Positions 4,884 to 53,073 of a stretch of DNA of 64,000 nt are shown piece by piece; position 1 is the stretch's first letter; each line of letters begins with the position of its first letter. The notes below the pieces were generated by a model. That model saw nothing but the letters and a program-made list of their open reading frames with translations, did not search any database and was not told where the DNA came from. The translations under genes and the position numbers were made by a program. The stretch is from the NCBI GenBank assembly GCA_000146465.1, contig CP001951.1. The stretch is one strand, 5' to 3'.

Positions 4884-4954
4884 GGGGGATTATCTTAGTG
4901 GTAGAGGATTTGCTTCGCATGTGAATTGCCCGGGTTCGATTCCCGGATCCTCCA
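4884..4954 (+). tRNA. tRNA-Ala (anticodon CGC)
   Basis: Cloverleaf read by hand. Acceptor GGGGGAT/ATCCTCC carries the G3:U70 wobble pair (the alanine identity element). D-loop AGTGGTAGA. Anticodon stem TTTGC/GTGAA with loop TTCGCAT (anticodon CGC). T-arm CCGGG-TTCGATT-CCCGG, discriminator A. No encoded CCA. Confidence 0.75.
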
Positions 4955-41496: not shown

Positions 41497-42987
41497 ATGA
41501 ATGTTGTTCCTCTTGGGGCTGGGCAAGACGTTGGCCGATCTTGCATCCTTGTCACTATCAACGGCAGGACAGTAATGTTCGACTGTGGAATGCACATGGG
41601 GTTTAACGACGAACGTAGATTTCCGGACTTTTCATATATTTCGAAGACAAAGAACTTCGACAAAGTAATAGACTGCATAATAATCTCCCACTTCCATCTA
41701 GATCACTGTGGAGCTCTCCCATACTTCACAGAGGTCTGTGGCTATAGCGGGCCGATTTACATGACCCTACCGACAAAGGAAGTATGTCCTGTTCTCCTGG
41801 ACGACTTCCGAAAAATAGTTGGCGGAAAGGGAGATAGCATCTTCTCATACCAAGATATAAGCAACTGTATGAAGAAAGTGGTTACCATCAGCATGAACGA
41901 GACATACAAGCATGACGAGAACTTCTACATCACTCCATACTATGCAGGACATGTTCTAGGGGCTGCAATGTTCCATGTTTCTGTTGGAGACCAGTCTGTG
42001 GTGTACACAGGTGATTATAGTACAACACCCGACAAGCATCTAGGGCCTGCTTCAATCAAGTGCATAAGACCAGACCTCCTGATCACCGAATCTACATATG
42101 GATCAATAACTAGAGACTGCAGAAGAGTAAAGGAAAGAGAATTTCTGAAGGCTGTTTCCGACTGCATAGCAAGAGGAGGTCGTGTCCTAATTCCTATATT
42201 TGCACTAGGAAGGGCTCAAGAGCTTTGCCTGCTTCTGGACGGATACTGGGAAAGGACAGGGCTTGAGATTCCGGTGTATTTCTCCAGTGGCTTGACTGAA
42301 AAAGCAAACGAGATATACAAGAAATTCATCGGTTACACAAATGAAACTGTTAAGAGGAAAATCTTCGAAAGAAATGTATTTGAGTACAAGCACATAAAAC
42401 CCTTCCAAAGGTACTACATGGATAACAAAGGCCCTATGGTCTTGTTTGCATCTCCTGGAATGCTTCATTCTGGAATGTCTCTCAGGATATTTAAAGAGTG
42501 GTGTGAGGACGAAAAGAATCTTGTGATAATACCTGGGTACTGTGTTAGAGGAACGATTGGAGAAAAGATTCTGAACGGGGCAAAGAGGTTGGAGATTCTT
42601 GGAGAGGAGAAGGATATAAAACTGGAAATCAAGAATTTAGGATTCAGTGCCCATGCAGATGCACAAGGGATTCTAAGTGTGATAGAGCAATGCGCCCCAA
42701 GGAATGTGATGCTTGTTCATGGAGAAAGGTCTCGGATGAAGCAACTCAAGAAAAGCGTTGAGGAGAGGTTTGGGATCCCGACATTTCTCCCACCAAACGG
42801 AACACTTATAAACATTCCATCGAAAAACATCGTCAACCTGAAAATAAGGAAAGGGCATCTCTCCAGTCATTTCAAGCCAAATTTATCGAAGGGGAAGATT
42901 TCTTTAAGAATGAGTCTCTCCTCAAAAAAAGAAGAAAACCATATTGATGTTGTAGATTGCGAAGATTACATAGAGGATGATGGCTAG
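41497..42987 (+). CDS. CPSF-73/Ysh1-like metallo-beta-lactamase beta-CASP nuclease (Integrator-11-like not excluded)
   Basis: ATG preceded by GGCCCCAGG. HFHLDHCGALPY (HxHxDH), the AGHVLGAAMF motif, TESTYG, and beta-CASP motifs (...FSAHAD...LVHGE). 496 aa is a shortened version of the ~700-780-aa orthologues. Confidence 0.75.
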   Translation: MNVVPLGAGQDVGRSCILVTINGRTVMFDCGMHMGFNDERRFPDFSYISKTKNFDKVIDCIIISHFHLDHCGALPYFTEVCGYSGPIYMTLPTKEVCPVLLDDFRKIVGGKGDSIFSYQDISNCMKKVVTISMNETYKHDENFYITPYYAGHVLGAAMFHVSVGDQSVVYTGDYSTTPDKHLGPASIKCIRPDLLITESTYGSITRDCRRVKEREFLKAVSDCIARGGRVLIPIFALGRAQELCLLLDGYWERTGLEIPVYFSSGLTEKANEIYKKFIGYTNETVKRKIFERNVFEYKHIKPFQRYYMDNKGPMVLFASPGMLHSGMSLRIFKEWCEDEKNLVIIPGYCVRGTIGEKILNGAKRLEILGEEKDIKLEIKNLGFSAHADAQGILSVIEQCAPRNVMLVHGERSRMKQLKKSVEERFGIPTFLPPNGTLINIPSKNIVNLKIRKGHLSSHFKPNLSKGKISLRMSLSSKKEENHIDVVDCEDYIEDDG

Positions 42988-43111
42988 GCAACTGGTATTT
43001 AGGAGTTTTAGTGGTTTGCCAGTTGTTGGGGCTCGGGAGGGATCTAAAACACTTGGTTTGAAAGTGGTTTGAAACAGAAAGTCATATAAGTTGTGAAGAC
43101 GGTGGATACTA

Positions 43112-44761
43112 ATGGAAAAAGAAGATTTTAGATGGTTTGAAGGAGATGGAGAAACAGAGGCAGAAGAATTTGTCCCCGCTCCAAATAGGGTTTCCTCTGT
43201 AAGTTATGTGATAGATGCAATAGGAGGGATATTCTATTCTATTTTTGTTCTCTCCTTGGTTGCAAGGGTTACTACATATGTCTTTGGCCTCAAACTGCTT
43301 GTGTTTTCTGTTGACCTCAATGTTGTGTTCCTGAGCATAACTGTCGTATCTTTACTGTTCATAGTTCTTGCAATAGCACGGGAGACAATGACTTTCATGG
43401 CCTTGACTCTCGGAATGGTTGAGAACTCGGATGCCTGTGCAAAGCTGCAAAGGCTTGTGATGGTTTCGGTCTGGTTTGGATTGAGTGCATACTGGATTAA
43501 GTATGTAGGAACGGCCTACGGACACAATTTTTATATCATAAAGAAAGTGTTTATGTCCGGGATGATAACGTCTGCAGCATACTCTATTGTAACAATTGCA
43601 ATGGCGTACTTCGAGAGTTTTTTCCTAAAGAAGACTCTCAAAAGGAAGTTAGATGATGTTCAAAAGACTGAAAGAATAGTATATGCAATGAAAAACTACA
43701 GGTATGATATTTCCGAATCAGGAGGAGGGCCGACCCCAGAGTGTACGTGCAGGGATCTCTTTTGTTTTAGAACTGCAGCCACGGTTGGAAGTAGGGAAAC
43801 AGGACGAAACGGCGGAGAAGAAGGATTCCATATGTTTACCGGGGGGCTTCTGATTAATGCGCCTGAAATCCGTGGAATCATGGATGCCAAGACCCTTGCA
43901 AGGGATGTTTTCTTCAAGGCTAGTGGAGGAAAGGATGTTCTTTCATATGAAGACTTCAGTGCAATATTCCCAGGGGCACAGGATGCCCAAAATGCATTCT
44001 CTTTCTTTGATTCGAACCATAGCAAGGTGATTTCAAAGAAAGAGTTCCATGACACAACTATATACTTCTACATGGAAAGAGTGAATCTCGAGAAGGCCAT
44101 AATGAGAGCAGAAGATTTCATTGGAATAATTCTAGGTACTCTTAATGTGATTACGGGAGTAGTTCTCTGCTTTGTCTATCTTATGATCTTTGGGGTTCCG
44201 CTTCAAGAGCTATTTGCACTGATACTTAGTGGATCTCTTGCCTTTAGCTTTATTGCAAGTGGAATAGCCACTGATATGTATCACAATTTCATGATGCTTG
44301 CCAGCCATCCGTTTGATATAGGCGATGACGTTATAATTGATGGAGCCGACTATAGAATCTATGAGTTTGGACTTACAAGCACGTCCCTTATTGGAGAGAA
44401 CGGAGGGAAAGTTAAGCTTCTGAACAGCGATCTCCGGAAAAAGAACCTTGTCAACATGACAAGAGCACCTGAAAAGATTATTGTATTCAACTTTGATCTG
44501 AATCCAGACATAAGGCCTGAGGAGTTTAAAAGGTTCAAGAGCATAATACATGAGTTTATAAAACAAAAGCCGTTTGACTATGACAACGAATTTTCCCTCC
44601 AAGCTTCCACAGAAAACTTTGTAAGCATTGATGTTCTAAGCTGTACAATGATCCTGAAGTGCAAGAGCTATAAGAATAAGTCAAAAAAGTTTCTTCTCCG
44701 AGTTGAGATGACTTCGTTTCTAAGGTCGCTAATAGCAGAGATGGGTATTGGAGTGAAATAA
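43112..44761 (+). CDS. MscS-like mechanosensitive channel with an internal EF-hand (Msy1/Msy2 type)
   Basis: Several N-terminal TM helices. An EF-hand-like loop FFDSNHSKVISKKEF. The MscS pore/beta-domain signature HPFDIGDDVIIDGADYRIYEFGLTSTSLIGENGGKVKLLNSDLRKKNLVNMTRAP matches P-F-x-x-GD-x-I...G-x-V-x-x-I-x-L-x-x-T. Confidence 0.65.
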   Translation: MEKEDFRWFEGDGETEAEEFVPAPNRVSSVSYVIDAIGGIFYSIFVLSLVARVTTYVFGLKLLVFSVDLNVVFLSITVVSLLFIVLAIARETMTFMALTLGMVENSDACAKLQRLVMVSVWFGLSAYWIKYVGTAYGHNFYIIKKVFMSGMITSAAYSIVTIAMAYFESFFLKKTLKRKLDDVQKTERIVYAMKNYRYDISESGGGPTPECTCRDLFCFRTAATVGSRETGRNGGEEGFHMFTGGLLINAPEIRGIMDAKTLARDVFFKASGGKDVLSYEDFSAIFPGAQDAQNAFSFFDSNHSKVISKKEFHDTTIYFYMERVNLEKAIMRAEDFIGIILGTLNVITGVVLCFVYLMIFGVPLQELFALILSGSLAFSFIASGIATDMYHNFMMLASHPFDIGDDVIIDGADYRIYEFGLTSTSLIGENGGKVKLLNSDLRKKNLVNMTRAPEKIIVFNFDLNPDIRPEEFKRFKSIIHEFIKQKPFDYDNEFSLQASTENFVSIDVLSCTMILKCKSYKNKSKKFLLRVEMTSFLRSLIAEMGIGVK

Positions 44762-44825: not shown

Positions 44826-45791
44826 ATGCTTGTCACTGTTTTTTCATGGAATGTAAACAACAGAGAAGGTGTTGCAGATGCTATTCCCGAAATTCTTGGG
44901 GATCAGAAGTCTGACATGATACTTATATCCCTACAAGAACACTTCGACTCCCAGAGTACTGTGGCGAAGTCTATTCAGAAGATGTATCCATCCTACAGAA
45001 TGATCTCGGTTGACAGGATGTTTGGGCTGTTGTCAATAGTATTATCTAAGGAGAGACACACAGTGGAGAGAATAAAGATGGGGTTTGGGATTCTAGGTTT
45101 CATTAACAAGGGAGTATGTGTGACTAAAATATCGAATGGGATAATGTTCATAAGCTGTCATCTATCTGCGCATCAGGAGAACAACAAAAAGAGATTGAAA
45201 GAAATTAGAAGAATATTTGAGTGTGTTTGTGACTCGGAGTCGGTGAGAAATGTCAAAACTGTTATTTTGGCTGGGGACATGAACTTCAGGATTGCAGGAG
45301 GTTCAAGAAGTCTCGACTACCTCAAGTCTGGAAAAGACGATCAATGCAACGAGTTTAAGAGAGCCTATCCGATGTTCCTAGAGGGAATGATAGATTTCAA
45401 GCCAACTTACAAATATATTGCAGGAACCGACGAACTGTGTAAAAAGAGACATCCATCGTGGTGTGATAGAGTATTTGTCTCGTCCTCATATGTAAAGTTT
45501 AATACATACGACTCTGCTTATGAAGTGAAGATAAGTGATCACAAGCCTATTCTCTGTGCACTGGAAGTGAGTGATAAGAAGACAAGCCGTGCTGCCATTC
45601 CAATGATCGGATATAGTGGGCACCATGTCATACGTGGGCTTACAAGATTTTATTGCATTGTGCACGAGTATCGCAATGCAGTTTCTGCACTTCTCTTGAT
45701 AATAATGCTGTATTTGATGCTTTCCAGATTTAAAACCATTTCGAGGCTCAGAAATCCATTCCGGGTCTTTTATCCGGAGGCAGATTGTTGA
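44826..45791 (+). CDS. Inositol polyphosphate 5-phosphatase (EEP superfamily), with a C-terminal hydrophobic tail
   Basis: Motifs follow the INPP5 catalytic-domain order and spacing: WNVNN, ISCHLSAHQENNKKRLKEIRRIF, VILAGDMNFRI, FKPTYKY, WCDRVFVSS, KISDHKPI. The tail AVSALLLIIMLYLMLSRF suggests membrane anchoring. Confidence 0.7.
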   Translation: MLVTVFSWNVNNREGVADAIPEILGDQKSDMILISLQEHFDSQSTVAKSIQKMYPSYRMISVDRMFGLLSIVLSKERHTVERIKMGFGILGFINKGVCVTKISNGIMFISCHLSAHQENNKKRLKEIRRIFECVCDSESVRNVKTVILAGDMNFRIAGGSRSLDYLKSGKDDQCNEFKRAYPMFLEGMIDFKPTYKYIAGTDELCKKRHPSWCDRVFVSSSYVKFNTYDSAYEVKISDHKPILCALEVSDKKTSRAAIPMIGYSGHHVIRGLTRFYCIVHEYRNAVSALLLIIMLYLMLSRFKTISRLRNPFRVFYPEADC

Positions 45792-45831: not shown

Positions 45832-48800
45832 ATGGAGGAAAGATTTGAGTGGAGATGGATGGGATCCCCTCTTGAGGAAAAGCTGCATGAATATATCCGG
45901 AGCATGGTTGAAGAGGAAGACCTTGACTGTCTTGCTAAGAAGATCACTGCCTACTTTGACATATGGCCATTCAAAGAATTTTCCCTTAGATGCTGGAGAA
46001 TACTCAGCGACAAACTCATTGATATCATTTCCTCACTGGAGAAGAAATACTTTTCCGAGGGAATACAAATGTTCAAAATGTCTGAGGAAGATAAAAGCCT
46101 TCTTATTGGAATTTTCAAGCTCTTTCAAAGGATATTTGGGTATTCAAGACAAAGACATCCTCTCGATGTTTCTACACAAGTTATGAAGTTCATATATGCA
46201 ATGGATCTAGATGTTGTGATTGAAGCACATAAGATGCTTGTGTTCTGCCTTAATTATTCGATTGGGCTGGATGAGTTTTCTGATGACCATGACATTCTGT
46301 TCAAATGCCTAGGAATCAACTCGGAGTTAAATGGAGAGAAGATCCTTAGTCTCTCGGAGAAGGCCTTTGTGAGTATACCCAAGGATCTAGAAGGAGAAGA
46401 TGTGTTTTGGACTCTTAAGAAGAATGTAGATGAGTATGGAAGAGGGAATCTTGTGTTTGAACTTCGGCAAAGAATAAATAATGAAAACAGAGATGGCCTG
46501 AATGTGTTGAAGGTCCTTGGAACATGTATATTTCTGATCCTTGCAAAGGGAGAAGGAGCTTTTGATGAAATTGTGGAAAAAATAGACTTTGGAGAAATTT
46601 GGAGATTTGCAGGCGAGGAATTATCCGAAAACATGGAATTTGCCATCATGAACCTTCTGGACATATTGATCTATGACGAATTTGACTTTGGAAGGATCTC
46701 ACGAATCCTTGAACTAAGCAACACCAAAGGATTTTTCTACAAAAGATTTGTAAATGGATTTGATGAGTGGACGTTTGAAAGACACATGGTGTTTCTTATT
46801 TACAACACACTCGTGGGAAGCCAAAAAACGAAGTACCTCAAGATGAATGTCCTTATGGAAGTACTTCCGAAATTTCATGAATGCTCGCCAGATGTTCGAT
46901 ATCACTTTCTTCGTACAGTTAGAATGCATTGTAAGGAAACCAATTCCCGTGGAACTGCCGAGTTTATTTCCAGAAACGGCGTAGGGATTTTAACAGAATA
47001 CCTTAGACATGCAGAAAAATACGATGTAAATGAAAATGTAAATCTCAAATATTCGTTGAAGATACTAAGTGAGATCTACATGGACGAAAGGAACAGAGGA
47101 GTGGTGGGGAATTTCGAAGACAGTCCTTTTCTTGATGTAATTGTTGCAACTATCCAAAAGCTTTGCCTTTTTGATTCCCGTATTGTATCTGTTTGTATAG
47201 GAATACTATCTTCCTTCATGTTTGAAGAGCCGCTGAATCTGCCCATATTCATGGAAAGAGGAGTGAATGTAGTTCTGAAGACACAACTATCTGTTGAGCA
47301 TACTCTGGAATATGTTTCTGCATTTGTTTCTTATATTGATGCATTTTCCTTGAACCTCTCCTTTCAGAAGGAGATATCTCATGGGGAATATCTCTTTAAG
47401 CTTCTAGTACTATGCAGAGAGGAAGAGTTCCTTGGTTCAATGAGCAATACAAACAAGATGGTATCCCTTCTGAATGTCCTCATAATGCATCATCCGATAT
47501 TCAAGGAGGACATCTTAAAGTTCTACAGGTTTGAGATTGGGTATCTGAAAAATCTTTTTTCGGAGGAGTCAAGCAGTCTTCTTGTAGAAAAGGAGTACTG
47601 CATCGAAATCTTCAACAACTTTTTCAGTCTTGTGGAAAAAATGGAGGTTTATCCCGAAGAGAAAGACGCCGACGGATTCTTTAACAATGTATTTGATCTG
47701 GTTACCAATCCGGCGTATTCTTGCAACATGCAAAACTTCTTCAAGGGATCTTTTGGAGAGGTCTACCGAACGATCTATAGAGAATCCCGCACATCTCTTG
47801 ATAAGCCGTTTGAGCAGTTGATATCCGACACAATGAAGATCATAGAGCTTAGTAGAATGAGCGAAGAACAGGATACAAGAGATTGGAAAAAAGCCATGAA
47901 AATGGAGCAGTGGTGCGGGGCAGAGGCTGATGAACTGATATTTTCTTATGAAAGTCAGATTTCCTTGGCCTGCATTCTTTGCGAAGATTTTATGGAGCTA
48001 ATAGATAATGGGGTAAAGACAAGACTGTTTAAAGCAATGGCAGACCTGTATCTTATGCTCATCCGATTCTCGGGAGCCTTTATTTCGATCAGCAACTTTG
48101 AAGAGCACAGGTTTTTATCTACATACAGATCTATAAGACTCAAGCTTGAAGAAAGCACCACAAAGGAAAGCATCCGATTGCATTTGCTGCAGTCTGTGTA
48201 TCTTTGTAACCTGTTTCTACTCCAGAGAATGTACCTTTTGGAGATCAAGGATTCATTTGACAAGACTCTTGAACTTGTTGAGAGGCTGGTGGAAGTAATG
48301 GCTCTTGAAGGAGATGACTCGATTACCCTTGGACTAAGAGCGATAGAGAGGCTGAGCAAGAACTTTGGGAAAGAGCACTATGAAGCAATATCTAGAGAAT
48401 GGTTTATAAAGAGCTTGCTTAAACCCCACTCTAGAAGCGACAGGTTAATTGCAGTTATAAACTTCCTTTCGTCCCAATTATCATCCAAAATAAATAGCGA
48501 TCCGAAGCTAAGGAGTATGCTTCTGGAGTATCTGGAAGAAATAGACATCAGCGTCTCCTCGGATCTCCGTAAAGTTGAGCTAAGTAATATGGTCATTGAG
48601 GCCATTGGGAGAATATTTGGAGATGGAGGGTCGCTTTCAGATGACGAAATGGAAATGATTTTCAGAATTTATGAGAGGTTTTATATATCTCCATTGTGTT
48701 CGAGGCTGATGATTAAGAGAATGATAAGACTACCAAGATTTACAATGAGACTGGTTCGGATAAAAGCATTTCCGACATTCCAATATTTCCTTATGAAAGA

Positions 48801-51800
48801 TGAGAAAGTGTATGAGCATGCATGCTTTATTGTAAATAGATTCTTTGAGTATTCTGACGAATTCATTGAAATGGCTAGTAATGTTCTTCTGTTTGGAACG
48901 GTTGGGCGATGTCCTCATAGGATAGATATCAAAGAGATCGGAAAGAAGATTTCAGGACTTGTTATGTCTGAAGTTTCGTCGCCAAAGGTACTGTTTTTCC
49001 TAATTATGTACTTTCGGCTGCTTCATCGGTTGGGGATGCCCAGACATTGTGGATTTGATCTTGGAAAGTTGATTTCACGAGTTAAAACATGTGACGAGAT
49101 GACTTTGATGAGAATACTCATCAGCTACATAATAACCCCGGATATCGATAGTATTTTGGAAAGGTCTGGAATTCCCTCAAGAAGGATTAGGAGCAAGGAT
49201 AGAGAATTCTTAAAGTCCCATGATTTCCTTATATACAGAGACTATGATCTTTTTGTTGAGAAATGTCTAAAGAAGTCGGGTCTTGGACCTATAGATGGGA
49301 TCTGCTTCAAACATGGATGCAATAGGACTTTCTCTCTAAAGGGAGAAGAGATATCTGTATCGGACAAGGAAATCGACTGCAGCAAGACTTTCATTAGAAA
49401 GCTCGTTCTTTTGCTGGATACCCAAGAATATTTCGGAATGGTAATTCAGCTTCTCTGCGAAATGATGTTTAACCATCCATCTCTTTTGCACGATATATGT
49501 AGATATCAGGTTTTGGACATTGTGTATGAAAGATGCATTAGAAAAATGGATGTATCAAGCAAGCACAAGGTGACTGGAGAACTGCATTGGGGTATAATGC
49601 TGTTTGTCATTGGACTCTATTCGGAGGTTCTTTTGTCGAAGTCCAGCACAGGTTCTGAGAAGAAAAGCGAGACTGAGCAAGAAAACACAAGAAAGAGTCT
49701 TCCATCTGTATCTGACTTTCTCCTTGAAAAGATCAAAGATGGATCCAATGAGGACTTTCTGAACGTGTCGTTCATACTTGTTAGAAGCCTCACACCATTG
49801 TTTATTCTAAGGCACGAAGATGAAGAAGATACAACCATGGAGAGGTTCCGAGAGATTTCGATTTTTATGGGATCAGTAGGGATCTTTGAGAAGATTATCA
49901 AGAGAATAATTGCTGTTGATGAAAGCGACCCAAAATACATAACATGCATCCAATGTTCGCTGGACTATCTTGGAAGGGTTTTTAGGCATTGCTACGGCGA
50001 CATTCTTCAAGATCTGGACGACTATGGTGACGACGAATCCCGTGAGATTGAATACTATAGTCTCGTTTCCGAGGACCATGGATTTGAGGAAAGTATTTTT
50101 GACTCCGACGAGAGCTATTTTTTTGATGATCCACCATTCCATGAAATTGAAGAGGAGAGGGCCATGGAGTCTGATGAAGCGGAAAGCTCCTCACAATCGG
50201 AAAATACAGTGTTCATCAAAAGCATTGAAAACGATCATGAGATGCCAACGGAAATGTATCTGATTAGCTCCGAGTATTACAATATTTCTGCAGAAAGTAG
50301 AACCGAGATCGAGGCTCTTATGTGCAGAAAGCTCTACGTCGACTTAATTGATAGCAGCACAAGCTGCTATACCTGGATGGTTAATAATTTCCAAAAGAGT
50401 ATAGTTTGTGAGCTAAGGGAGCCGAGTGTTCATTGTAAGGAGCCTGAGAGGTCTTTGAATGAAGATGACAAGGATGAGGGCTATGTCACTGATGGTGAGG
50501 AAAAGATGATATGGAATTTCGAACCAACAAACGATGAAGATAATCTGGAAGATACAAATGAAGCCTTGGACACTTCAAATCCACCAGATAGAGAGGAGAT
50601 AGAAGAGGAGAATGAGGACGTTGGATCCTCGGAATCTGATGTCGGGTCTCAGAACGGAGAGATTCCGACTCTTGACCCTGATAATCTCAACAGAATGGAG
50701 GAAGACGAGCTAAACGAAGTTCTGAAAGCCTATTTCGACGAGAGACGATCCCTATCGCTGACTTATATACCTCTCCACACGGGTTTCTATGAAAGGCTTT
50801 CTTCCCGTGTAAGACCTATGTTTGAGGAGATGGAAAGAGTGTATAGAGAGAGTTTCTTCTACGACATTAGAACCGAGTCTACCAAGGAGAGTGACGAAGA
50901 AATCATGGAAACCAAAGAGAATCTCCTTGAGATGGATCTTTCAACATTTGAAGAATTCATCAAGAAATCTATCGTCGAAAAGGATTTCCCATTTGCCAAG
51001 AGCTGGAAGTTAGTTGATGCACTTTCCAAGGATACAAAAATGAAGAGTGTTGTCTTCAAAGTATCCAACAGCATGATCTCGTCAATTTCATCATCTCAGG
51101 AAGGAGACCTTAATAATTACGACGCAGTGAAATTCCGAAGAACTTTGTGCTTTCTTCTTAGCATCGTTAAAAGCTCAATAAGGTACTATGGCTATTTCCG
51201 AGAAAACCCTGAAATTGTAAGAAAAGTTTTTATTCTTCTTGGAAAGGTGAAATTAACCAATGATCTTTTGAGACTAGTGACTGACTTCAGTGTTATCTTT
51301 AGGAAGGACAAGGACTTTGTCTTTGGCCAAGACATCGATTTGGAAAATATTCTCGGTTGCTTTGGAAGAATGGTTGACTCTGAATGCTTCAACCTTCTTG
51401 AGGAGTTCATGGAGAACACCGCCGACCACTTTGGCCCGAGATTCCTAGATATTATTCTGGTAGAGATAAAGCAGCAATTTTCGATCCTCTCCAAAGACAT
51501 TGGAAAGGAGTTTCCTTCCGATGCATTTCTAGAAAGTCAAAAGATATTTTTGAGACTTTGGAAGATGATGACAAAAGTTATAGGAAGAAGCAATTTGTGT
51601 AGTGAGGAAAGAGACATTGCACTTCTGAGTCTGATGCTGAATCCTCTCTGGAATGTGTTTTTTGAAAATCAGAAGAACAAGGAATCGATTGAAGACCTCA
51701 TTAATGTATCGGATATCTACGAAGCTTTTTTTGTTGTTGGAAAGGTGTTTGAAAATAGGTTCGGGGAAACAGAGAATACAGGTTGCGCAGAGATGTGCAA

Positions 51801-53073
51801 CAAGTTCCAAACATTCTATAAAAAGATTATAGAGTTACGGGCCAAGCAGATTAACTTACTTGCCGATGAAAGACCAGAAAAGCTTTTCAGAAACTTCAAC
51901 AGCCTCATAAGTCATTCAATACTAACGTTCAGTAACAAAAAGAAATATCTGTCAAGAATGCTCTCTGTGGAAGGAGTGGATAAATCCTCGTCTTTCTACA
52001 GAGTTTATGTAGATAGGAACGATGTTCTGAGGAGTTCTTATTTTCAAGTGATGGCAAAAAGTCCTGAAGAATTCAGAACAAGAAGACTCGAGATAAAGCT
52101 AACTGGAGAAGAAGGCTTGGACTATGGAGGATTGACAAGAGAATGGCTGGTTCTTCTCTCAAAGGATTTTCTTGATCCTAACTTTGCTCTTTTTGAGTTT
52201 TCCACCGAGGACAAGACAGTAGCTGTTCCATGCAAGAACAGTTATGTTAATCCCGAGCACTTGTCTTACTTCAAGTTTGTCGGGCGTATCATGGCAAAGG
52301 TTATAATGGATGGAAACTTCATCAACTTGTATCTACCGAAGTTTATCTACAAGCATATCCTTGGGAAGAGTTGCGATCTACAGGACCTAGAATCTGCAGA
52401 CCCTGAATTCCACAAATCGCTTGTCTGGATAAGAGATAATTCTGTTGGGAAATCTCTAGGACTAACATTTTCGTTCGATGACGTGAGCTTTGGAGTTCAT
52501 AGAACTGTCGAATTAGTAAAAGGAGGAGCAAATATCTTTGTGGATGACTCGAACAAGGAAGAATATATAAAGTTGGCGACACAATACAGGCTATTTGATG
52601 GAGTCGAACTTCAATTATCTGCACTAAAGTCAGGACTGTTTGAAATACTTGGAAATAGAGCTCTTGAGATGTTTGACGAGAATGAACTTGAGCTTCTAAT
52701 CTGTGGAATTCCTGATATAGACATTGATGACTGGAAGAGTAATACCCTTTATTATGGATATACAGAGAGCTCAAAGACCGTTATTTGGTTTTGGAAAGCA
52801 GTTAAAAGCTTTGACTCTGTCAACAGGGCAAGACTTCTACAATTTGTGACTGGAACATCCACCTTGCCGTTTGAAGGGTTCTCGCATTTACAAGGAAACA
52901 ATGAGATCCAAAAGTTCTCGATCCATAAGATCTCTGACAGAACAGACAGCCTTCCCACTGCGCATACATGCTTTAACCAACTTGTACTTCCAGAGTATTC
53001 CTCCTATGAAAGCCTTCTGAAATATTTGATGTTGGCCATCAATGAATGCTCTACAGGATTTGGTTTTATCTAA
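45832..53073 (+). CDS. Giant HECT-domain E3 ubiquitin ligase (Tom1/HUWE1-like)
   Basis: ATG preceded by AAGCCCCCA. 2413 aa with an armadillo-like helical N-terminal two-thirds and an acidic stretch (DDYGDDESREIEYY...EEERAMESDEAESSS). The C-terminal HECT: LEIKLTGEEGLDYGGLTREW..., the catalytic Cys in TAHTCFNQLVLPEYSSYESL, and the terminal ...GFGFI. Confidence 0.85.
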   Translation: MEERFEWRWMGSPLEEKLHEYIRSMVEEEDLDCLAKKITAYFDIWPFKEFSLRCWRILSDKLIDIISSLEKKYFSEGIQMFKMSEEDKSLLIGIFKLFQRIFGYSRQRHPLDVSTQVMKFIYAMDLDVVIEAHKMLVFCLNYSIGLDEFSDDHDILFKCLGINSELNGEKILSLSEKAFVSIPKDLEGEDVFWTLKKNVDEYGRGNLVFELRQRINNENRDGLNVLKVLGTCIFLILAKGEGAFDEIVEKIDFGEIWRFAGEELSENMEFAIMNLLDILIYDEFDFGRISRILELSNTKGFFYKRFVNGFDEWTFERHMVFLIYNTLVGSQKTKYLKMNVLMEVLPKFHECSPDVRYHFLRTVRMHCKETNSRGTAEFISRNGVGILTEYLRHAEKYDVNENVNLKYSLKILSEIYMDERNRGVVGNFEDSPFLDVIVATIQKLCLFDSRIVSVCIGILSSFMFEEPLNLPIFMERGVNVVLKTQLSVEHTLEYVSAFVSYIDAFSLNLSFQKEISHGEYLFKLLVLCREEEFLGSMSNTNKMVSLLNVLIMHHPIFKEDILKFYRFEIGYLKNLFSEESSSLLVEKEYCIEIFNNFFSLVEKMEVYPEEKDADGFFNNVFDLVTNPAYSCNMQNFFKGSFGEVYRTIYRESRTSLDKPFEQLISDTMKIIELSRMSEEQDTRDWKKAMKMEQWCGAEADELIFSYESQISLACILCEDFMELIDNGVKTRLFKAMADLYLMLIRFSGAFISISNFEEHRFLSTYRSIRLKLEESTTKESIRLHLLQSVYLCNLFLLQRMYLLEIKDSFDKTLELVERLVEVMALEGDDSITLGLRAIERLSKNFGKEHYEAISREWFIKSLLKPHSRSDRLIAVINFLSSQLSSKINSDPKLRSMLLEYLEEIDISVSSDLRKVELSNMVIEAIGRIFGDGGSLSDDEMEMIFRIYERFYISPLCSRLMIKRMIRLPRFTMRLVRIKAFPTFQYFLMKDEKVYEHACFIVNRFFEYSDEFIEMASNVLLFGTVGRCPHRIDIKEIGKKISGLVMSEVSSPKVLFFLIMYFRLLHRLGMPRHCGFDLGKLISRVKTCDEMTLMRILISYIITPDIDSILERSGIPSRRIRSKDREFLKSHDFLIYRDYDLFVEKCLKKSGLGPIDGICFKHGCNRTFSLKGEEISVSDKEIDCSKTFIRKLVLLLDTQEYFGMVIQLLCEMMFNHPSLLHDICRYQVLDIVYERCIRKMDVSSKHKVTGELHWGIMLFVIGLYSEVLLSKSSTGSEKKSETEQENTRKSLPSVSDFLLEKIKDGSNEDFLNVSFILVRSLTPLFILRHEDEEDTTMERFREISIFMGSVGIFEKIIKRIIAVDESDPKYITCIQCSLDYLGRVFRHCYGDILQDLDDYGDDESREIEYYSLVSEDHGFEESIFDSDESYFFDDPPFHEIEEERAMESDEAESSSQSENTVFIKSIENDHEMPTEMYLISSEYYNISAESRTEIEALMCRKLYVDLIDSSTSCYTWMVNNFQKSIVCELREPSVHCKEPERSLNEDDKDEGYVTDGEEKMIWNFEPTNDEDNLEDTNEALDTSNPPDREEIEEENEDVGSSESDVGSQNGEIPTLDPDNLNRMEEDELNEVLKAYFDERRSLSLTYIPLHTGFYERLSSRVRPMFEEMERVYRESFFYDIRTESTKESDEEIMETKENLLEMDLSTFEEFIKKSIVEKDFPFAKSWKLVDALSKDTKMKSVVFKVSNSMISSISSSQEGDLNNYDAVKFRRTLCFLLSIVKSSIRYYGYFRENPEIVRKVFILLGKVKLTNDLLRLVTDFSVIFRKDKDFVFGQDIDLENILGCFGRMVDSECFNLLEEFMENTADHFGPRFLDIILVEIKQQFSILSKDIGKEFPSDAFLESQKIFLRLWKMMTKVIGRSNLCSEERDIALLSLMLNPLWNVFFENQKNKESIEDLINVSDIYEAFFVVGKVFENRFGETENTGCAEMCNKFQTFYKKIIELRAKQINLLADERPEKLFRNFNSLISHSILTFSNKKKYLSRMLSVEGVDKSSSFYRVYVDRNDVLRSSYFQVMAKSPEEFRTRRLEIKLTGEEGLDYGGLTREWLVLLSKDFLDPNFALFEFSTEDKTVAVPCKNSYVNPEHLSYFKFVGRIMAKVIMDGNFINLYLPKFIYKHILGKSCDLQDLESADPEFHKSLVWIRDNSVGKSLGLTFSFDDVSFGVHRTVELVKGGANIFVDDSNKEEYIKLATQYRLFDGVELQLSALKSGLFEILGNRALEMFDENELELLICGIPDIDIDDWKSNTLYYGYTESSKTVIWFWKAVKSFDSVNRARLLQFVTGTSTLPFEGFSHLQGNNEIQKFSIHKISDRTDSLPTAHTCFNQLVLPEYSSYESLLKYLMLAINECSTGFGFI

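Follow-up and report, generated by a model that had tools for sequence, protein, structure and literature searches.

The 64,000-nucleotide stretch of Encephalitozoon intestinalis ATCC 50506 DNA analysed here (contig CP001951.1 of GenBank assembly GCA_000146465.1, hereafter the window) contains a 549-residue open reading frame (ORF) at 43112..44761, and an earlier note on this DNA had proposed that it encodes a eukaryotic MscS-like mechanosensitive channel with an EF-hand. Since microsporidia carry both eukaryote-like MscS1 genes and a single, drastically truncated MscS2 of bacterial derivation (PMC3879972), the locus raises the questions of which type this gene represents, whether an EF-hand is truly present, and whether that EF-hand still binds Ca2+. 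We conclude that the product, Eint_101310, is very probably an MscS-like channel subunit of the eukaryotic type that carries an EF-hand, belongs to the microsporidian MscS1 family and descends vertically from the fungal lineage, rather than being the bacterial copy acquired by horizontal gene transfer (HGT). All features of the locus described below lie on the plus strand.

In the ORF listing of the window, a complete frame of 549 codons plus stop runs from ATG to stop exactly at 43112..44761, and its product is identical over its full length (100%) to Eint_101310 (P0001), for which the UniRef name is 'EF-hand domain-containing protein'. The closest relative, P0002, has the same length and 72% identity, and the named members of its cluster are E. 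cuniculi ECU10_1360; a homolog search yielded 37 full-length microsporidian orthologs. The gene model is sound, because an in-frame TGA at 43094-43096, five codons 5' of the ATG, makes 43112 the first possible methionine and because the orthologs begin at the same residue. A pseudogene or a mis-called start was ruled out by the intact frame, the upstream stop and the conserved N-terminus. Among the orthologs, the 438-residue P0035 (44% identical) has a canonical EF loop and bears the record name 'UNVERIFIED_CONTAM ... [Menopon gallinae]'; it appears to be a microsporidian sequence inside a chicken-louse genome assembly, which points to an unsampled microsporidian infecting the louse.

The MscS beta-domain (residues 390-451; 44279..44464) was recognised by Pfam PF00924 with 27.5 bits against a gathering cut-off of 20.2, and the same model matched all 35 orthologs scanned. 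Upstream of it lies the pore-lining transmembrane helix TM6 (residues 364-397; 44201..44302), followed by an HPFDIGD motif at residues 399-405, both placed by BLASTP and HMMER alignments. Escherichia coli MscS (YggB), in a reference sequence identical to PDB 6rld, aligned by BLASTP with 23% identity over residues 361-504 (E = 1e-5) and ungapped across the pore at an offset of 271, so that L376, F380 and G384 fall on the bacterial gate residues L105 and L109 and on the kink glycine G113. F380 also aligned by HMMER to MSL10 F553, the proposed vapor lock of that plant channel (PMC8442888), and was conserved in at least 90% of the orthologs; H399, D402, G404 and D405 of the HPFDIGD motif were invariant. 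The C-terminal alpha/beta domain of the cytoplasmic cage (residues 456-544; 44477..44743) was located from the predicted strands and helices together with alignments that extend to residue 496 of Eint_101310 against MSL10 and to its residue 548 against a Gonapodya MscS-like protein. Eint_101310 therefore has the pore helix with hydrophobic gate and kink glycine, succeeded by beta and alpha/beta cage domains, by which members of the MscS superfamily are recognised, and its Foldseek matches include MscS, YnaI, YbiO and MSL1, with E-values between about 1e-8 and 5e-7.

The remainder of the architecture was derived from a full-length AlphaFold2 monomer model built on 35 orthologs, with secondary structure assigned by DSSP. 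An N-terminal membrane region (residues 29-170; 43196..43621) holds TM1-TM4, with predicted helices at residues 29-58, 69-100, 107-136 and 141-198, and is backed by a predicted local distance difference test (pLDDT) score of about 80-90, by Foldseek and by hydropathy. It is followed by a presumably cytoplasmic linker of low confidence (residues 199-255; 43706..43876; pLDDT <50 for residues 201-244), by an EF-hand pair (residues 256-320; 43877..44071), and by TM5 (residues 333-359; 44108..44188; pLDDT 81-88, hydropathy peak 2.47). Hydropathy strongly backs TM1, TM2, TM4, TM5 and TM6. The exiting helix of the second EF-hand and TM5 were predicted as one unbroken helix spanning residues 309-359. 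With six membrane passes and the topology of MscS and MSL10, the N- and C-termini would share one, presumably cytoplasmic, side with the EF module and the cage.

The linker between TM4 and the EF module also holds a cysteine motif, TPECTCRDLFC (residues 208-218; nucleotides 43733-43765; translation checked). Its cysteines are partly conserved among 62 microsporidian orthologs (C211 in 33, C213 in 44 and C218 in 32), and it may be an acylation or metal-binding site; we found nothing on this motif in the literature.

We next focused on the EF-hand. The peptide FFDSNHSKVISKKEF is present and contains the 13-residue loop DSNHSKVISKKEF (residues 300-312; 44009..44047; translation checked), which matches the complete PROSITE PS00018 pattern (chance expectation 0.0017 per protein of such length and composition) and is unique in this respect across the 43 window ORFs with 150 or more residues. 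The loop, hereafter EF2, has D300, N302, S304, V306 (backbone), S308 and E311 at its ligand positions, with K305 rather than glycine at position 6, and lies between the predicted TM4 and TM5, 99 residues upstream of HPFDIGD. A partner loop, EF1 (ASGGKDVLSYED, about residues 270-281), is degenerate, lacking a ligand at position 1; the registers of both loops were set by placing two short strands at loop positions 7-9. When residues 250-335 were modelled alone (pLDDT 91.8, strands at local residues 27-29 and 57-59), DSSP gave the same order of helix, short strand, helix, helix, short strand and helix as in the full-length model. All of the top 50 Foldseek PDB matches of this segment were EF-hand proteins, with CRACR2a the best (root-mean-square deviation 1.7 A over 71 columns, E = 0.011), followed by troponin C, centrin, calmodulin, parvalbumin and CBL2; E-values of 0.011 and above are weak, as is usual for a small domain. 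Residues 250-335 are thus predicted to form an EF-hand pair with one canonical site, the second loop, which fits the published description of a single EF-hand in the fungal EF-MSL channels (PMC6904872).

The position of the loop is also shared with distant relatives. In the non-ortholog matches that have both PS00018 and H-P-[FY]-D-x-G-D, the loop lies 99-101 residues upstream of the latter motif and exactly 100 in nearly all of them, compared with 99 in microsporidia, and the distant homologs that fit PS00018 carry a single match each. The Gonapodya MscS-like protein aligned with Eint_101310 over residues 258-548 (25% identity, E = 5e-23), placing FFDSNHSKVISKKEF opposite LFDRNENGSISRREM, and the EF loop aligned column for column with the canonical EF loops of non-microsporidian relatives. 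The fixed loop spacing and the common alignment register in chytrid, aphelid, basidiomycete and plant relatives indicate that the EF-hand is ancestral to the eukaryotic MscS-like clade and has been kept in place.

The eukaryotic affinity of the protein emerged consistently from sequence, fold and tree. When the ortholog profile was run exhaustively with HMMER against 1.84 billion representatives, it returned 4209 matches at E <= 1e-3, in which the orthogroup (down to about 1e-99) was followed by long proteins at 1e-44 and weaker. These non-ortholog matches start at profile positions of about 250-260 and hence span the EF module. Among 25 that were looked up, the 14 with names were all eukaryotes, including the chytrids Polychytrium, Paraphysoderma, Nowakowskiella, Borealophlyctis, Geranomyces and Gonapodya, as well as Blastocladiella, the aphelid Amoeboaphelidium, basidiomycetes, a moss and a fern; the remainder were unnamed. 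Searching the PDB by sequence gave MSL10 (5.5e-11) and Flycatcher1 (6e-11) as best matches, aligned from residue 286 through 496 with the EF region included, whereas bacterial MscS proteins were weaker (4e-7 to 0.5) and matched in the pore and beta region only. Foldseek gave a similar picture (AtMSL10, E = 3.8e-18 over 530 columns; Flycatcher1, 3.5e-13), and the matches to bacterial MscS, YnaI and YbiO in the same range as above covered roughly 215-230 columns of the C-terminal part only.

In a neighbour-joining tree the microsporidian orthogroup fell next to MscS-like proteins of fungi and plants and apart from bacterial-type sequences (split in 58/60 bootstraps; microsporidian monophyly in 52/60), in agreement with the published PhyloBayes tree (PMC3879972); ours is a distance tree on 131 core columns, with long microsporidian branches and only four sequences on the bacterial side, namely E. 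coli MscS and three short MscS sequences without names. P0065, an unnamed, full-length and very divergent protein of 559 residues (E = 4e-68), branches at the orthogroup's base; it has neither a PS00018 loop nor an HPFDxGD motif, with ...VSTVSVGDE... in place of the latter; it could be a deep-branching microsporidian ortholog or another MscS1 paralog.

Taken together, these results bear out most of what the earlier note had read at 43112-44761. The frame is exact, the MscS domain scores above threshold, and the EF loop stands upstream of the pore and beta-domain and aligns with the canonical loops of its relatives, so that neither a missing loop nor a placement outside the eukaryotic clade was observed. 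The topology prediction that it had called for gave six TM helices with the EF module in the TM4-TM5 loop, and the description as a eukaryotic-type homologue holds, given the MSL10 and Flycatcher1 matches, the named relatives and the bootstrap support. The narrower label of an Msy1/Msy2-type protein stands in part, on the strength of the published EF-MSL architecture that Eint_101310 shares and of its other fungal relatives.

Whether the E. intestinalis protein itself binds Ca2+ is, judged from its sequence, evenly poised. Binding is plausible because the full EF pattern is kept, as it is in the E. cuniculi loop. A serious, if somewhat doubtful, alternative is that the channel assignment is right and the EF pair is a structural relic, serving as a rigid TM4-TM5 linker with no physiological Ca2+ binding. 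To compare the loop columns, we set 118 distant homologs against 62 microsporidian orthologs and found all key ligand positions kept in 89 and 37, respectively. Glycine at position 6 occurred in 94/118 of the former and in none of the latter, which have R, K or Q instead, and E or D at position 12 occurred in 103/118 and 48/62. The position 12 acid is replaced in 14 orthologs, among them two sister species, E. hellem with Ala and E. romaleae with Val, and the Nosema/Vairimorpha group with Thr. That Gly6 has gone throughout the lineage, and the position 12 acid repeatedly, shows that constraint on Ca2+ coordination is not uniform. The Pfam EF-hand models likewise stayed under their gathering cut-offs of 25-30 bits on residues 292-313 of Eint_101310 (EF-hand_6 16.1, EF-hand_1 15.0 and EF-hand_7 14.9 bits), and only 14 of 35 orthologs reached E <= 0.01 with them. 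Moreover, plant MSL10 and Flycatcher1 work as channels although their counterparts of this loop are degenerate and are described as a 'possible EF-hand motif' only (PMC8442888). A relic is harder to reconcile with the E. intestinalis loop itself, in which the side-chain ligands D1, N3, S5, S9 and E12 are all oxygen-bearing and the PROSITE pattern is complete, and which PS00018 accommodates by permitting K, R and Q at position 6; the hydrophobic position 8 and F13 are, in addition, retained in nearly all orthologs.

The same loop losses and Pfam scores weigh against our preferred reading of a eukaryote-type, EF-hand-bearing channel, as do four further points. The monomer model is moderate overall (pLDDT 74, predicted template-modelling score 0.54); TM3 is amphipathic rather than strongly hydrophobic, falling below the 1.4 hydropathy cut-off; heptamer formation, ion selectivity and cellular location are ascribed to Eint_101310 by analogy; and, according to Berg et al. 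2024 (PMC11262690), no study has addressed how MscS1 proteins function as mechanosensitive channels. That the channel may be 'Ca2+-modulated', as the earlier note labelled it, we infer from the loop sequence, and the loss of Gly6 with the partial loss at position 12 calls for caution before that label is used.

Under the preferred reading of a eukaryote-type MscS1 channel subunit, the subunits would assemble as a heptamer, as in the family, with L376 and F380 of the TM6 helices forming a hydrophobic gate, while the cytoplasmic cage would be built from the beta and alpha/beta domains. Membrane tension would tilt the TM1-TM5 paddles and open the TM6 gate, and the open gate would pass ions and osmolytes, thereby buffering swelling. 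Ca2+ at EF2 might bias the position of TM5 and TM6, that is, of the paddle, and so tune the tension threshold; it would be well placed to do so because, in the prediction, the EF2 exiting helix passes into TM5 without interruption. A more far-reaching proposal, in which a Ca2+-tuned mechanosensitive MscS1 of the ECU10_1360/Eint_101310 type sits in, for instance, the plasma membrane or the polaroplast and links osmotic swelling with the Ca2+ dependence of spore discharge, we consider improbable; if a Ca2+-tuned channel were nonetheless true, the change of Gly6 to K, R or Q across microsporidia would represent a retuned Ca2+ affinity and not decay.

An MscS fold need not imply a tension-gated valve, and Eint_101310 might instead, perhaps in an internal membrane, serve as a scaffold or as a conductance that is constitutive or gated by a ligand. 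Non-mechanosensitive roles have been reported for some MscS-superfamily members (in a review as cited in PMC6904872), Cryptococcus Crm1 showed no clear role in osmotic regulation (PMC6904872), deletion of the Magnaporthe Msy1 homolog gave no phenotype (PMC13463886), and the five family members of E. intestinalis leave room for subfunctionalisation. However, conservation across the orthogroup extends to the hydrophobic residues that align with the gate, to the kink glycine and to HPFDxGD, and the full TM paddle region is kept, unlike in MscS2, which makes this alternative unlikely.

Finally, a bacterial-derived HGT copy of the MscS2 type has a negligible probability here: the pore and beta-domain core is indeed common with E. 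coli MscS, and a bacterial-type core profile also matched Eint_101310 (1.7e-13), but MscS2 clusters with bacterial MscS and is so truncated that most TM helices are gone, as is the C-terminal domain (PMC3879972, PMC11262690), while Eint_101310 has its 549 residues, six predicted TM helices, EF-hand pair and full cage, finds its best sequence and fold relatives among eukaryotes, is parted from the bacterial-type sequences by the tree, and has a gene on a chromosome other than that of the E. cuniculi MscS2, ECU09_0470 (PMC3879972). Architecture and tree placement thus refute a bacterial-HGT origin, and the eukaryotic and bacterial-HGT copies that the earlier note wished to see distinguished can be told apart, Eint_101310 being an MscS1 and not the truncated MscS2. 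No second MscS-like sequence was found in the 64-kb window by tblastn or by three core profile hidden Markov models, one of them bacterial-type, run on the six-frame translation.

The genes around Eint_101310 encode, in order, an E2 ubiquitin-conjugating enzyme, an SNF2 helicase, Rad10, Rrp4, a CPSF73-like beta-CASP nuclease (41497-42987), Eint_101310 itself, an inositol 5-phosphatase-like Exo_endo_phos protein (44826-45791) and a HECT E3 ligase of 2413 residues (45832-53073). Eint_101310 has these neighbours on an NCBI assembly contig as well. The spacers between the last four genes are 124, 64 and 40 bp, typical of Encephalitozoon compaction. Because these neighbours are unrelated housekeeping genes, the genomic context is uninformative about function, and an operon-like functional context was ruled out in this compact eukaryotic genome. 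As for RNA genes, a single one was detected in the window, a tRNA-Ala (anticodon CGC) at 4884-4954 (+), on which ARAGORN and Rfam RF00005 (54.6 bits) agree.

The overall weight of these findings is limited, as the gene, its MscS1 family, its eukaryotic origin, the EF-hand label and the fungal EF-hand/MscS architecture are already known. Our additions are minor and consist of the ancestry of the loop within the eukaryotic clade and its fixed spacing of 99-101 residues, its place in a predicted EF pair, the predicted run of its exiting helix into TM5, and its erosion within microsporidia. The MscS family stands out in E. intestinalis because a 2012 survey, whose scope did not extend to MscS, found no classical cation-channel homologs in this species (PMC3410928). 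Ca2+ and osmotic swelling govern spore firing, and MscS1 proteins are reasonable experimental targets, as reviews have already argued; the link of MscS1 to spore germination serves here as context only (PMC10381864).

We further compared Eint_101310 with known systems, beginning with its own family. Nakjang et al. 2013 list ECU10_1360 among the eukaryote-like MscS1 genes (MscS I-V), which arose by duplications in the microsporidian ancestor, have a canonical domain architecture and are expressed during infection; expression of ECU10_1360 rises significantly between 24 and 48 h post infection, and the supplement gives the five family members in E. intestinalis mentioned above (PMC3879972). Eint_101310 is the same gene in a sister species and differs in nothing substantive. 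An EF-hand is mentioned nowhere in the main texts of Nakjang 2013 (PMC3879972) and Berg 2024 (PMC11262690), with 0 occurrences in each.

Among fungi, the EF-MSL proteins (Schizosaccharomyces pombe Msy1/Msy2 and Cryptococcus neoformans Crm1) have one EF-hand upstream of the MscS domain and several TM helices, six being predicted in Crm1 (PMC6904872). Like them, Eint_101310 has one canonical EF loop upstream of the channel domain and before the last two TM helices. Its loop differs in the replacement of Gly6 by K, and with 549 residues against roughly 650-1200 in the fungal matches the protein is almost without an N-terminal extension. Msy1 and Msy2 are located in the endoplasmic reticulum and act in the control of Ca2+ and cell volume on hypo-osmotic shock (PMC6904872, PMC13463886); neither this location nor this role can be transferred to Eint_101310 without experiment.

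Plant MSL10 and Flycatcher1 (PDB 8tdj, 8tdk, 8tdm and 7n5d) are the best solved-structure matches (TM-score 0.53-0.61), and they share the architecture of six TM helices and a cage with an EF-like segment at the same place in the TM4-TM5 loop. They differ in their long N-terminal regions and have only 14% identity in the structural alignment. Their EF-like loop (FPLFDGAAETGRITRKAF) is degenerate, as it contains an insertion and lacks an acidic residue at position 12, whereas that of Eint_101310 fits the canonical pattern. E. coli MscS and the microsporidian MscS2, in turn, have the pore helix, beta-domain and alpha/beta domain in common with Eint_101310, but the E. coli protein has three TM helices and no EF-hand and matches residues 361-504 only.

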